From: a virus | Lineage: Duplodnaviria > Heunggongvirae > Uroviricota > Caudoviricetes | DNA length: 6,330 bases | Direction: 5' to 3' (one strand) | IMG/VR virus record: IMGVR_UViG_2734482547_000007 | Shown: positions 1-6,330 of the stretch, piece after piece | Numbering within the stretch: the first letter of the stretch is position 1 | Layout: every line of letters starts with the position of its first letter | Program-made: the position numbers and the translations under genes | Notes under the pieces: model-generated | What the model was told of the DNA's origin: nothing | Seen by the model: the letters and a program-made list of their open reading frames with translations, nothing else | The model's database searches: none

Positions 1-72
1 GGGAAAAATATCATCAGATGGCTGCTTAAAAAAAGAACAAATGGTAGTGTCCGCTATTGCCAGTACACCTCA
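1..72. repeat. Left copy of a 72-bp perfect terminal inverted repeat (partner 6259..6330)
   Basis: Bases 1-72 equal the reverse complement of 6259-6330 when compared base by base; identity stops at position 73. Confidence 0.9.
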
Positions 73-271
73 TCCATCACCGAAAAAAATTGGCTTTTAC
101 ACCATTGGCGATAAAAGCATTTACCTGTATGACCTACGCCGCATGGATGAAATCATGGAGGCTCTTGATAATCGTTCGTCGATGGATTGGTGTGTTGCTG
201 TTCATGATATGAATGCAGGGTTTGATGAAAAGATTTTGTTCCCCTCATCAGTTGAAAGCACTGCGGGTTAA
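41..271 (+). CDS. Hypothetical phage protein, probably 5'-truncated (reading frame stays open upstream to the window start)
   Basis: ORF-track ORF of 76 aa; no in-frame stop between position 2 and 41; stop at 269-271 is followed by AAGGAG and the next gene start, so it sits in an operon. No family recognised. Confidence 0.4.
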   Translation: MVVSAIASTPHPSPKKIGFYTIGDKSIYLYDLRRMDEIMEALDNRSSMDWCVAVHDMNAGFDEKILFPSSVESTAG

Positions 272-281
272 GGAGTAACAC

Positions 282-449
282 ATGACCACTATTACCAAAG
301 AACGTATTGAATTGTTCATTAAAAACCCGCTTGAAAACGGGCTTACCCGTGGTGAACAAATGGAACTGGCACGGATTGCGCTGGCATCGCTGGAAGCAGA
401 GCCGGTTGTGTTCTGGTTTGAAAAATATCAAGAAGGGGCTACGGCATGA
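282..449 (+). CDS. Hypothetical small protein (55 aa), paralog of the next ORF
   Basis: ATG at 282 preceded by AAGGAG (270-275); translation [12 protein letters not shown]...[10 protein letters not shown]; its stop overlaps the next start (ATGA at 446-449). Absent from the ORF track only because it is under 60 aa. Confidence 0.5.
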
Positions 450-790
450 CGACTTTTACCAGAGAGCAGTTAATAGCTCACGCAGAGGAGACTATTGAAG
501 CACAGAGACTGTGCATACCGGGCACAATCGACCATGACATCATCCGCACATATAAGATGGATATTGCTGTTCTGGAAATCGCACTGGTATCGCTGGCAGC
601 AGAGCCAGCCGGTAAATTGCATGAATACAAACCAGTGGGATATCAGCGTCTGGTCGATGAGTTAACCATGCTGGTAAAGCAGTTAACCTGGCAACTGAGG
701 AAAGCGAAGCCAGACTGCAAATTACCGGATAAGGCGATGAGTTATCTGGAGCGGAACGGACTGATAAGCGTGGAGGATATTTTACGATGA
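446..790 (+). CDS. Hypothetical protein (114 aa), paralog of the 282..449 ORF
   Basis: ORF-track ORF; GAAGG 9 nt upstream; N-terminus [12 protein letters not shown] and motif [10 protein letters not shown] parallel the upstream ORF; its stop overlaps the next ATG (ATGA at 787-790). Confidence 0.6.
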
Positions 791-870
791 CCTGGCCTGA
801 AGCATTAACAACGGTAGGAATTGCGATGGCGGTGGCGCTGGTGGTGTATTCGATTTGCCGCTGGGGATAA
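787..870 (+). CDS. Small hydrophobic peptide (27 aa), predicted single transmembrane segment
   Basis: ATG at 787 with GGAGGA about 10 nt upstream; translation [27 protein letters not shown]; start overlaps the upstream stop. Short length limits confidence. Confidence 0.4.
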
Positions 871-876
871 AAACGG

Positions 877-905
877 TTTGCGGGAAAAGGAGAGTTAAGT
901 AGAAT
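877..905 (+). promoter_or_regulatory. Candidate promoter for the hok mRNA (-35 TTTGCG/TTGCGG, -10 TAGAAT at 900-905)
   Basis: Sigma70-like hexamers with 16-17 bp spacing, placed so the transcript would start near 912 at the tac element. Confidence 0.35.
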
Positions 906-911
906 TGCAGC

Positions 912-923
912 GGGTGCTTGAGG
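912..923 (+). promoter_or_regulatory. hok mRNA 5' element (tac-like) that can pair with the 3' fbi-like element at 1287..1299
   Basis: GGGUGCUUGAGG (912-923) pairs with CCUCAAUGCACCC (1287-1299) as 12 bp with one bulged U. Nearby, CTATCTG (924-930) pairs with CAGATAG (954-960). Confidence 0.5.
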
Positions 924-960
924 CTATCTGTCTCAGGCATGAACACCAAAAGGCAGATAG

Positions 961-1033
961 AGAAAAGCCCCAGTTAACATTACGCGTCCGGCAAGACGCT
1001 TAACATTAATCTGAGGCTCAATCTATGAACGGC
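961..1033 (-). ncRNA. sok: Candidate sok-like antisense RNA opposing the hok leader and mok start
   Basis: Minus-strand promoter-like hexamers inside the 5' end of the upstream reading frame: -35 TTGCCT (complement of 1063-1068), 17-bp spacer, -10 TAACCT (complement of 1040-1045). A GCGTC/GACGC hairpin (984-999) lies in the predicted transcript. Ends are approximate. Confidence 0.3.
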
Positions 1034-1081
1034 AAATCTAGGTTAGCCTCTTACGTGCCGAAAGGCAAGGAGAAGCAGGCT

Positions 1082-1237
1082 ATGAAGCAGCAAAAGGCGA
1101 TGTTAATCGCCCTGATCGTCATCTGTTTAACCGTCATAGTGACGGCACTGGTAACGAGGAAAGACCTCTGCGAGGTACGAATTCGAACCGGCCAGACGGA
1201 GGTCGCTGTCTTCACAGCTTACGAACCTGAGGAGTAA
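1082..1237 (+). CDS. hokD: Hok-family type I toxin (51 aa, membrane-damaging peptide), HokD/RelF-like
   Basis: Translation MKQQKAMLIALIVICLTVIVTALVTRKDLCEVRIRTGQTEVAVFTAYEPEE matches Hok-family architecture and my recollection of E. coli HokD. AAGGAG 9 nt upstream. An in-frame ATG at 1025 with GAGG SD occupies the position of mok. Confidence 0.85.
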   Translation: MKQQKAMLIALIVICLTVIVTALVTRKDLCEVRIRTGQTEVAVFTAYEPEE

Positions 1238-1286
1238 GAGACCAGGCGGGGGAGAAATCCCTCGCCACCTCTGATGGGTCAGGCAT

Positions 1287-1299
1287 CCTCAATGCACCC
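1287..1299 (+). promoter_or_regulatory. hok mRNA 3' fold-back (fbi-like) element complementary to 912..923
   Basis: See the 912..923 pairing; an 8-mer TCAGGCAT also occurs at both 933-940 and 1279-1286. Confidence 0.45.
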
Positions 1300-1305
1300 A
1301 CACTT

Positions 1306-1326
1306 AACCCGCTTCGGCGGGTTTTT
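1306..1326 (+). terminator. Rho-independent terminator ending the hok transcript
   Basis: Stem CCCGC/GCGGG with a TTCG loop (1308-1321) followed by TTTTT. Confidence 0.7.
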
Positions 1327-4644: not shown

Positions 4645-5703
4645 ATGCTTAATACTGTAAAAATATCCAGTTGTGAGTTAATCAACGCCGACTGCCTGGA
4701 ATTTATCCGGTCGTTACCCGAAAATTCTGTTGACCTGATAGTCACGGACCCGCCGTACTTTAAAGTGAAGCCTGAGGGCTGGGATAACCAGTGGAAGGGC
4801 GACGATGATTACCTGAAGTGGCTGGACCAGTGTCTGGCGCAGTTCTGGCGGGTGCTGAAACCTGCCGGAAGTCTTTACCTGTTCTGTGGTCATCGCCTGG
4901 CATCTGATATCGAAATCATGATGCGTGAACGCTTCAGTGTGCTGAACCATATTATCTGGGCGAAGCCGTCCGGACGCTGGAACGGATGCAACAAGGAAAG
5001 CCTGCGGGCGTATTTCCCCGCCACAGAGCGCATTCTGTTCGCGGAACATTATCAGGGGCCGTATCGTCCGAAAGATGCCGGGTATGCGGCGAAGGGCAGT
5101 GCACTGAAACAGCATGTGATGGCCCCGCTGATTTCTTACTTTCGTGATGCGCGAGCTGCCCTGGGGATAACGGCAAAACAGATTGCAGATGCCACAGGAA
5201 AGAAAAACATGGTGTCGCACTGGTTCAGTGCCGGTCAGTGGCAGTTGCCGAATGAAAGCGATTATCTGAAATTACAGGCGCTGTTTGCCCGGGTGGCAGA
5301 AGAGAAGCATCGGCGTGGTGAACTGGAAAAGCTCCACCACCAGCTGGTGGATACGTATACCTCACTGAACCGGCAGTATGCGGAGCTGCTGAGTGAATAT
5401 AAACATCTGCGGCGGTATTTTGGCGTGACGGTGCAGGTGCCGTATACCGATGTGTGGACGCATAAACCGGTGCAGTTCTATCCCGGGAAACATCCGTGCG
5501 AAAAACCGGCAGAAATGCTGCAGCAGATAATCAGCGCTAGCAGTCGTCCGGGTGACCTGATTGCAGATTTTTTCATGGGGTTGGGTTCGACAGTGAAAGC
5601 GGCACTGGCGCTCGGGCGTCGTGCAATTGGCGTTGAGCTGGAGACTGAACGTTTTGAGCAGACGGTTCGGGAAGTACAGGATTTAGTCAGCCAGAACGGA
5701 TGA
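4645..5703 (+). CDS. DNA methyltransferase (N6-adenine or N4-cytosine, DPPY motif N-terminal, FxGxG motif C-terminal), apparently orphan
   Basis: 352 aa; DLIVTDPPYF near the N-terminus and DLIADFFMGLGST near the C-terminus. No restriction endonuclease partner is visible in the window. Confidence 0.85.
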   Translation: MLNTVKISSCELINADCLEFIRSLPENSVDLIVTDPPYFKVKPEGWDNQWKGDDDYLKWLDQCLAQFWRVLKPAGSLYLFCGHRLASDIEIMMRERFSVLNHIIWAKPSGRWNGCNKESLRAYFPATERILFAEHYQGPYRPKDAGYAAKGSALKQHVMAPLISYFRDARAALGITAKQIADATGKKNMVSHWFSAGQWQLPNESDYLKLQALFARVAEEKHRRGELEKLHHQLVDTYTSLNRQYAELLSEYKHLRRYFGVTVQVPYTDVWTHKPVQFYPGKHPCEKPAEMLQQIISASSRPGDLIADFFMGLGSTVKAALALGRRAIGVELETERFEQTVREVQDLVSQNG

Positions 5704-5743: not shown

Positions 5744-5819
5744 GGCCCTTTAGCTCAGTGGTGAGAGCGAGCGACTCATAATCGCCAGGTCGCTGGTTCA
5801 AATCCAGCAAGGGCCACCA
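5744..5819 (+). tRNA. tRNA with CAU anticodon, most similar to tRNA-Ile2 (lysidine type; ileX/ileZ-like); tRNA-Met not excluded
   Basis: Cloverleaf checked by hand: acceptor GGCCCTT/AAGGGCC, D-arm GCTC...GAGC, anticodon loop CUCAUAA, T-arm GCTGG-TTCAAAT-CCAGC, encoded CCA. Near-identical in layout to E. coli ileX as I recall it. Confidence 0.8.
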
Positions 5820-5862: not shown

Positions 5863-5926
5863 NNNNNNNNNNNNNNNNNNNNNNNNNNNNNNNNNNNNNN
5901 NNNNNNNNNNNNNNNNNNNNNNNNNN
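5863..5926. other. Run of 64 N (assembly gap or masked sequence) inside the tRNA array
   Basis: Seen directly in the sequence. Confidence 0.99.
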
Positions 5927-6258
5927 GAATCCCCCTGTGCGGAGGGGCAATCAGCGAGTAGGTATATGGGATAATCGCGGATTCAGGTGCTGGTACTGAA
6001 TTCACCGGGAGGCACCCGGCATCATGCAATGGCACATAGCGCCACTCTCCAGCCCTCTCCGGAGGGGCTTTTCTGTGCCGGATACATCACAGTTTCTGGA
6101 ACCTTAGGTACTACAGTATCAGTCAGGGTGCTATATTTTCAGATGTGATGAAAGCCTGTCAGCAGGCAGGGCGTATCGGAAATGACCCAGTAGAGAAAAC
6201 GTTGACTCAGATACCGGTGCTGAGTTACCGGGAAACCGGCATCACATGACCGCTATCC

Positions 6259-6330
6259 TGAGGTGTACTGGCAATAGCGGACACTACCATTTGTTCTTTT
6301 TTTAAGCAGCCATCTGATGATATTTTTCCC
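6259..6330. repeat. Right copy of the 72-bp terminal inverted repeat (partner 1..72)
   Basis: Reverse complement of 6259-6330 equals bases 1-72. Confidence 0.9.

Follow-up and report, generated by a model that had tools for sequence, protein, structure and literature searches.

Do three overlapping small genes in a lambdoid prophage form an undescribed phage system, or do they belong to an ordinary accessory gene array? The question is raised by a 6,330-nucleotide (nt) viral DNA record (IMG/VR IMGVR_UViG_2734482547_000007; the whole stretch is called the window below), in which two open reading frames (ORFs), ORF-A and ORF-B, are followed by a 27-codon ORF, here named pep27, and by a hok/sok toxin–antitoxin locus. 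A preliminary description of this DNA had taken ORF-A and ORF-B for tandem paralogs and the trio for a possible new toxin, abortive-infection or superinfection-exclusion system. Our comparison leads to a different answer. ORF-A and ORF-B belong to a kind of mosaic accessory gene that has already been catalogued, and pep27 appears, from its sequence relatives, to be a widespread, selectively maintained and almost never annotated micro-gene that forms a recombination unit of its own. The interval probably forms the end of a lambdoid-prophage array of accessory ("ea-type") genes and holds no dedicated three-gene system.

Conservation and boundaries of pep27

The three ORFs were all found in the sequence at the positions previously described (Table 1), each linked to the next by an ATGA overlap and each preceded by a Shine–Dalgarno (SD)-like site. 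In the ORF-A/ORF-B overlap, the ATG occupies positions 446–448 and the TGA positions 447–449; in the ORF-B/pep27 overlap, the corresponding triplets lie at 787–789 and 788–790. The SD-like sites are AGGAG (271–275) for ORF-A, GAAGGGG (432–438) for ORF-B and GGAGGA (772–777), 9 nt ahead of the ATG, for pep27.

The peptide ORF, whose conservation the preliminary description had left to be checked, is conserved in related prophages. Full-length pep27 was detected by tblastn in 95 phage records, and the phages that carry it include 933W-type Shiga toxin (Stx) phages, BP-4795/VT1-Sakai-type phages and the virulent Vequintavirinae phage Av-05. A blastn search with its 84 base pairs (bp) placed it in 1631 of 5426 complete E. 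coli genomes (about 30%), with up to seven copies per genome and 163 plasmid places among the complete genomes. In a pattern scan of one genome per species, pep27 was found in E. coli and Shigella only.

Variation was analysed in about 125 IMG/VR copies, representing 54 unique DNA sequences, that were collected by a degenerate DNA pattern scan. The length is constant at 27 codons, the stop codon is TAA or TGA, and the amino acid replacements are conservative and hydrophobic. Residues G11, A15 and Y21 are invariant, and tryptophan occupies residues 3 and 26. The ratio of nonsynonymous to synonymous polymorphism (pN/pS) is 0.31–0.36 in the pep27 frame and 0.61 and 1.78 in the other two frames, in a set for which the pattern fixed codons 1–6 and 25–27 as well as the ORF length and which favours intact copies. 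These ratios point to purifying selection on the pep27 coding frame only.

The boundaries of the conserved block are sharp. Homology runs from an RGGAGGTG-type SD in the last codons of the upstream gene exactly to the stop codon, and the flanks fall into about 15 upstream and about 22 downstream sequence classes. Among the roughly 125 copies, the upstream gene ends in the C-terminal module of ORF-B in about 55, is of the DUF551 type in about 45 and of the 933W L0139 type in about 7, the others being of further kinds. In each scored copy, a doubtful match in contig L062 (see below) set aside, the start of pep27 overlaps the upstream stop as ATGA or TGATG/TAATG. On the downstream side, about 42% of the copies are followed by hok/sok, while others have a DUF4222 gene next to them or run immediately into an intrinsic terminator. 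By these comparisons, pep27 appears to be an independent, discrete cassette, consisting of an SD and 84 bp, which is found downstream of genes of at least four unrelated kinds.

The strong hydrophobicity claimed for the peptide is confirmed: its grand average of hydropathy (GRAVY) is 1.13 and its Kyte–Doolittle 19-mer mean reaches 2.16 at residues 6–24. A single transmembrane helix is predicted for the same residues and is retained in all variants. Searches of Pfam, NCBIfam and PADLOC with pep27 returned nothing above cut-off, the best matches below it being KdpF (E=0.12) and DUF883_C (E=0.029), and phmmer against the PDB gave no match. The HOK_GEF profile (PF01848) matches the neighbouring ORF at 1025–1237 (E=3e-23) and does not match pep27. 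Furthermore, the fold of the pep27 block at the RNA level carries no structure signal (z=+1.2), an Rfam search of positions 200–920 at E<=1 gave no match, and a promoter scan around positions 700–900 on both strands found no promoter-like site for pep27.

Annotation has largely passed the gene by. The Prokaryotic Genome Annotation Pipeline (PGAP) gives no pep27 annotation in two RefSeq loci, the 933W and BP-4795 records also lack it, and a few submitters enter it as a hypothetical or prophage protein. Its sequence did not occur in the literature searched or in the supplements of an enterohaemorrhagic E. coli (EHEC) translatome (ribosome-profiling) paper, and it was not found in the text of a preprint on uropathogenic E. 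coli (UPEC) small proteins.

Several further observations concern individual copies. On plasmids of about 80–118 kb, pep27 lies behind decayed ead/Ea22-like and DUF551 genes, as in a 95-kb E. coli example (L215, NZ_CP020522.1; pep27 at 2501–2584). Recurrent inactivated alleles are found at position 1120 of loci L223, L225 and L227, at 2001–2084 of L008 and at 4714–4824 of L001; the ATG-to-ATA allele also changes the upstream TGA stop into TAA. Codon 3 is changed from TGG to TAG in Shigella phage POCJ13, and phage vB_EcoS-689R5 has a 1-nt deletion. The K-12 prophage CPS-53 contains YfdT and the junction and lacks the pep27 gene: yfdT (L214, 9874–10200) has the head described below and ends ...QQEVK with GAGGTGAAATAATAG, which equals the BP-4795 pep27 junction GAGGTGAAATGATGA minus both ATGs. 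For L0139 of 933W (L005, 2034–2504), the GTG start given in the record produces a 76-nt overlap with L0140 and follows an alternative frame of what seems to be the end of a DUF551-type gene; a start further inside (MENEGDN...), preceded by the usual GGAGGTGAA junction, seems likelier than this GTG. Two further matches of the one-genome-per-species scan, both GC-rich, have non-hydrophobic translations and were read as chance. On the minus strand of L062, a GC-rich environmental viral contig (IMG/VR 3300020202_000070), a 30-amino-acid (aa) ORF, MNWPEAAVACTAIAAFAFIVYAWWRWGPEL, lies at 11007–11096 between two larger ORFs; it is a distant pep27 relative from outside the enterics or a chance match, the latter being possible because the search pattern fixed both ends.

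Some candidate explanations for the peptide were discarded. PHROG matches of five pep27 variants (phrog_4612, 35838 and 38566; E=0.006–0.15) are weak and inconsistent and were rejected as a family. An exact look-up placed pep27 in clusters represented by DUF551 proteins of 121–185 aa, raising the idea of a Rosetta-stone fusion, which was rejected because those proteins do not contain the pep27 sequence. A programmed –1 frameshift from ORF-B into pep27 was likewise set aside: there is no slippery heptamer at 775–790, and the ends of the other upstream genes are unrelated.

Mosaic structure of ORF-A and ORF-B

The resemblance between the N termini of ORF-A and ORF-B noted in the preliminary description goes beyond chance. 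BLASTP aligns residues 1–41 of ORF-A with residues 1–54 of ORF-B at 33% identity (E=1e-5), and the first 50 or so residues of both match the same PHROG profiles, which are families of unknown function. This common head comprises about 45 residues, begins at residue 1 with the pattern MTT[IF]TKE and ends in IALxSLEAEP. When ORF-A was searched against 1.84 billion cluster representatives, 243 clusters (defined at 50% identity) were matched at E<=1e-3; in the listed matches, query residues 1 to about 45 align with target residues 1 to about 45 at 71–98% identity, in targets that span 53–457 aa. The ORF-A head is thus 71–98% identical to the N termini of at least 150 other proteins. Head-bearing proteins with DUF551, DUF550 or 'Eaa' bodies occur in E. 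coli, Salmonella and Enterobacter, and YfdT of E. coli K-12 (prophage CPS-53), which is 41% identical to ORF-B (E=8e-6), carries the head as well. Head comparisons with YfdT gave E=8e-6 and E=1e-3, and the ORF-B head is about equally near to YfdT (41%) and to ORF-A (33%). Since each head has much nearer relatives elsewhere than in the neighbouring ORF, the tandem duplication with loss or gain of about 60 residues that had been proposed gives way to a different picture, in which ORF-A and ORF-B are two members of a highly mosaic constant-head/variable-body protein set. Such a pattern recalls polymorphic effector families.

Neither protein could be assigned to a curated family, in agreement with the preliminary description, and no such family covers any of the three ORFs. 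ORF-A and ORF-B match no Pfam or NCBIfam family at E<=1; in particular, both are unmatched by the Ead_Ea22 profile (PF13935) and, in the Pfam search, by DUF551 (PF04448). The 'DUF551, partial' labels on ORF-A-like database fragments come from the common head only.

Beyond its head, ORF-A consists of the end of another gene. DNA identity with the HNH endonuclease gene of ArgO145 (L009) starts at position 405, right after ...GAGCCG (AEP), and in ArgO145 this HNH gene precedes ORF-B. The HNH profile phrog_2118 matches ORF-A residues 31–54 only, at profile positions 252–275 of 301; ORF-A lacks the HNH catalytic motif, the match being confined to the profile end. The tail contains both the ORF-B SD (432–438) and the ATGA junction. 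Among 76 scored IMG/VR loci, the 14-residue tail precedes near-identical ORF-B in 75, and in the last it differs by one residue; the gene before ORF-B is ORF-A in 54 of these loci, the HNH gene in 19 and another gene in 3. The 14-codon tail accompanies ORF-B because it holds the ribosome-binding site of ORF-B. By its sequence, ORF-A is a recombinant: the head runs as far as the AEP motif, where the final 14 HNH codons take over. Further products bear the same mark: an A/B hybrid protein (P0031) recombined at the head motif, another (P0001) is an A–B fusion, and a pseudogene at 5493–5619 of L003 ends directly past the AEP motif, which together make this motif a recombination and deletion hot spot.

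The AlphaFold2 model of ORF-B shows helices at residues 6–26 and 30–51 of the head, forming a confident hairpin (means of the predicted local distance difference test, pLDDT, of 84–95 in 10-residue blocks); in the whole model (mean pLDDT 76), a disordered linker and then three helices come after the hairpin. The last 50 or so residues match further PHROG families. Across 20 homologues (47–92% identity), the C-terminal module contains 23 invariant columns, and it also ends proteins of 101–199 aa with other middle domains. As modelled, ORF-B would be a minimal form made of the head, a short linker and a conserved, coiled-coil-like C-terminal module. A natural protein of 114 aa (P0029; 11 member sequences on 7 contigs) arose by a deletion that fuses the ORF-B head in frame to pep27, giving a head with a C-terminal membrane helix.

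Taken together, the unit that recurs in these loci appears to be the joint: the last codons of one gene carry the SD of the next, and exchanges inside the genes keep the joint.

Candidate roles of pep27 and of the trio

In the mechanism that we propose, ORF-A, ORF-B and pep27 would be translated from the phage early polycistronic mRNA, with ribosomes reinitiating at each ATGA overlap (termination–reinitiation). ORF-A and ORF-B would be soluble helical proteins of a host-takeover or lysis–lysogeny-modulating kind, like Ea22 and YfdT. pep27 would enter the inner membrane as a single helix, with W3 and W26 at the membrane interfaces and R25 probably cytoplasmic, and would there affect the integrity of the membrane or act on a partner within it. 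After four alternatives have taken their shares, we leave slightly more than half of our expectation to a membrane role of pep27 other than those they describe.

The alternative that fares best, though still rather unlikely, is that pep27 is a membrane-damaging toxic peptide of the type I toxin or holin kind, whose dose is limited by translational coupling and which contributes, perhaps jointly with Hok, to shutting off the host or to the timing of lysis. TisB, DinQ and ShoB are small type I toxins that resemble pep27 in size and hydrophobicity, about 42% of the pep27 copies lie directly upstream of hok, and pep27 is often the last gene ahead of a terminator. In addition, hokW–sokW is reported to facilitate the release of phage Sp5 (PMC8621323); the passages of that paper that were searched mention no upstream small ORF. 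Against a toxin stand the lack of an own promoter in the 700–900 scan and of an antisense RNA in the Rfam search of 200–920, the single basic residue with no amphipathic or charged tail, the lack of any match to HOK_GEF or other toxin families, and the fact that more than half of the pep27 copies occur without hok and hok also occurs without pep27.

Less probable still is a role as membrane tether or partner of the protein encoded upstream, be it the ORF-B C-terminal module or DUF551, with coupling ensuring co-synthesis. The universal stop/start overlap, the preponderance of about 55 ORF-B-type and about 45 DUF551-type C termini among some 125 upstream genes, and the natural in-frame fusion of ORF-B to pep27 in P0029 would fit such a partnership. 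However, the upstream C termini are unrelated (...ISVEDILR, ...PLPEPPQEVNQ, ...NIEQEVNR, ...KKKGMNQ and ...GIGVEVK), and these genes have in common only their SD-bearing last codons. Genes for DUF551 and for the C-terminal module are also found with no pep27 behind them (K-12 yfdS; P0081), the clustering of pep27 with long DUF551 proteins is an artefact, and P0029 is the product of a deletion.

The reading that prompted this work, in which the trio is an undescribed toxin, abortive-infection or superinfection-exclusion system with the peptide as effector and the paralogs as regulators, now looks very unlikely. It draws on the tight coupling and the hydrophobic peptide, on the constant presence of pep27 behind near-identical ORF-B and on the adjoining hok toxin locus. 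The coupled genes are indeed real; what did not hold is that they form a conserved module, as the predecessor of ORF-B and the neighbours of pep27 vary and the trio is not co-inherited. The HNH gene replaces ORF-A in a quarter of the scored loci (19/76), and ORF-A is itself a recombination chimera. ORF-B is found without ORF-A, and pep27 is found without ORF-A, ORF-B or hok, including behind DUF551-type, L0139-type and other genes. Conversely, behind the gene for P0081, a diverged protein that carries the C-terminal module of ORF-B, the same TTTACGATGACC junction leads into a DUF551 gene and not into pep27. PADLOC-DB 2.0 returned zero families at E<=1 for the three ORFs and the ORF upstream of them, and no defence or toxin family was matched. 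No own promoter-like site was found in the scan, so expression from a repressed prophage is not expected, unlike that of usual exclusion genes. We find no support for a toxin, abortive-infection or exclusion role.

That the 84-bp block is a DNA or RNA element and no gene, for instance a site of recombination or a stretch of the sequence that controls hok, as the lack of PGAP annotation in two RefSeq loci and its abutment on the hok promoter in the window might suggest, is hardly credible given the synonymous bias in the pep27 frame only, an ORF length that is constant though the stop varies between TAA and TGA, the conservative, hydrophobic replacements, homology that spans exactly SD to stop, the occurrence of the block without hok, and the lack of a stable RNA fold or an Rfam match.

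Several results weigh against our reading of pep27 as an independent membrane-peptide cassette in an ordinary array. Near-identical ORF-B is followed by pep27 in 77/77 scored loci, intact in 72, and the ORF-B C-terminal module and pep27 may be functionally linked. The adjacency to hok in about 42% of the copies may likewise reflect more than shared descent. The insertion energy of the pep27 helix on the Hessa scale is about 0 kcal/mol, and membrane insertion is predicted rather than certain. For ORF-B, Foldseek against the PDB found generic helical hairpins only (best E 0.78), and a PDB profile search found designed coiled coils only (E=4.5e-4). Finally, besides the bias of the pN/pS set towards intact copies, broken copies with frameshifts, TGG to TAG or ATG to ATA changes exist, and selection is therefore less than absolute, although such copies are as expected in decaying prophages.

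A bolder extension is possible but doubtful. pep27 may found a phage micro-protein family, as a self-contained cassette (an SD and 27 codons) for a membrane-active effector, carried along by its stop/start overlap behind the 3' ends of unrelated early genes. The carriers of pep27 would then tentatively include temperate, Stx-converting, plasmid-borne and even virulent coliphages. The roles of the peptide, on equally tentative grounds, could for example concern membrane potential, lysis timing (possibly with Hok), the exclusion of other phages or the modulation of a host membrane protein. In parallel, the head-bearing EaA/YfdT-like proteins may form a polymorphic effector arsenal, in which the head targets a common host hub.

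Genomic setting

The window is a 6330-bp fragment with the gene content of a lambdoid, Rac/Qin-like enterobacterial prophage. A truncated accessory gene, ORF-A, ORF-B, pep27 and hok/sok are followed by a DUF968 gene and rusA and, further 3', by the genes for antiterminator Q, a DNA methylase and tRNA-Met. The same array lies between replication genes and DUF968/RusA/Q genes in two relatives (L001 and L003) and beside xis and int in two others (L002 and L006).

Table 1 Features in the pep27 region of the window
Feature	Position	Strand	Basis or remark
IS600 (IS3-family) terminus	1..72	.	inverted partner of 6259-6330
5'-truncated accessory gene (phrog_1714)	41..271	+	PHROG E=5e-37; stop codon overlaps ORF-A SD
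ORF-A	282..449	+	55 aa
ORF-A head, residues 1-41	282..404	+	phrog_3323 E=1e-19, phrog_60 E=4e-18
ORF-A tail, 14 residues + stop	405..449	+	identical to HNH endonuclease gene 3' end
ORF-B	446..790	+	114 aa
ORF-B head, residues 1-54	446..607	+	diverged copy of common head; BLASTP vs ORF-A, YfdT
ORF-B C-terminal module (ELTMLVKQL...)	659..790	+	phrog_660 E=8e-43; last codons include pep27 SD 772-777
pep27	787..870	+	27-codon ORF; predicted single-pass membrane peptide
Putative hok promoter (TTGCGG, 16 nt spacer, TAGAAT)	878..905	+	read from sequence
hok/sok type I toxin-antitoxin locus	912..1323	+	Pfam HOK_GEF E=3e-23; Rfam RF01794 112 bits
mok	1025..1237	+	within hok/sok locus
hok	1082..1237	+	within hok/sok locus
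terminator	1306..1323	+	within hok/sok locus

The hok locus reported downstream of the trio is borne out by both the Pfam and the Rfam match (Table 1), the Rfam sok/hok-leader match spanning positions 912–1087. With the hok leader beginning only at 912, the hok mRNA does not include pep27. The putative hok promoter begins 8 nt past the pep27 stop; the consensus promoter scan did not call this site. In 933W-type Stx phages, pep27 and hok are co-inherited as a single block. Of the records in the phage collection, 78 contain this type of hok and 88–95 contain pep27, and the two are found both together and apart.

At the window ends, positions 1–72 and 6259–6330 form a perfect 72-nt inverted repeat and are 97.5% identical to IS600 transposase regions; similarity to other prophages begins only at 73/74. 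Two IS600 copies in inverted orientation flank the intervening 6.2-kb prophage fragment, an arrangement that points to either a Shigella-like genome or a contig ending in insertion sequence (IS) repeats. The gene at 41–271 has been shortened by the left IS600 copy, and intact homologues of 87 aa are present in L002 and L003. The IS600 insertion separates the array from its native upstream operon, so its expression in the present genome is doubtful.

At the other end, the bases at 5864–5926, just past the tRNA-Met(CAT) gene (5744–5819), are given as a run of N, being masked or unresolved. A 70-bit Rfam match to the small RNA STnc100 at 5898–6080 covers the N run and sequence beyond it.

Comparison with known systems

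pep27 is present in the reference Stx phages 933W, VT2-Sakai/Sp5 and BP-4795 and is not represented in Pfam, NCBIfam, PHROGs or PADLOC. Should it influence the release of phage, the timing of lysis or the integrity of the membrane, it would bear on Stx-phage biology, and it would also affect how results obtained with hokW–sokW are read, given the distance of only 8 nt between pep27 and the putative hok promoter in those phages. The region also illustrates clearly how accessory genes of lambdoid phages are reassembled: exchange at the head motif and at SD-bearing gene ends yields paralog-looking neighbours and chimeric mini-ORFs without local duplication.

ORF-A and ORF-B share their head with the EaA/YfdT-like proteins (PHROG 660, 3323, 60 and 5117; RAST 'EaA protein'), which occupy the same setting in early accessory gene arrays of lambdoid phages and prophages. 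YfdT differs in lacking the ORF-B C-terminal module, and ORF-A in consisting of the head and a borrowed 14-residue tail. In K-12, multicopy yfdQ and yfdR with either yfdS or yfdT inhibit replication initiation (PMC4776307). A second comparison is with lambda Ea22 and the Ead_Ea22 family (PF13935, IPR025153), which belong to the same neighbourhood and are likewise mosaic, with a common N-terminal part and exchangeable C-terminal domains, DUF551 included (PMC10834534); lambda Ea22 favours lysogeny (PMC10834534). PGAP labels the upstream neighbours in related prophages 'ead/Ea22-like'. The Ea22 N terminus is nevertheless a different one (SEINYQALRE...), and ORF-A and ORF-B stand outside that family.

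With the small inner-membrane proteins KdpF, AcrZ, MgtS and PmrR and the type I toxins Hok, TisB, DinQ and Ldr, pep27 has in common its small size and single hydrophobic helix. It shares with them flanking aromatic residues, here together with conserved G11 and A15, and has likewise been overlooked by annotation pipelines. It differs from them in having no significant sequence match to them and in being phage-borne, always coupled and without a promoter or antisense RNA that our searches could find. The hok/sok loci (hokW–sokW and hokD) are its immediate neighbour in about 42% of the copies, yet belong to a separate transcript.

In lambdoid phages, mosaic joints inside genes or at gene borders have reportedly been described by Juhala and Hendrix and, for HK620, by Clark and colleagues. 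In the present loci, too, the exchange points lie at short conserved stretches, namely the AEP motif and the SD-bearing last codons; unlike in those cases, the exchanged unit can here be as small as an SD and 27 codons.

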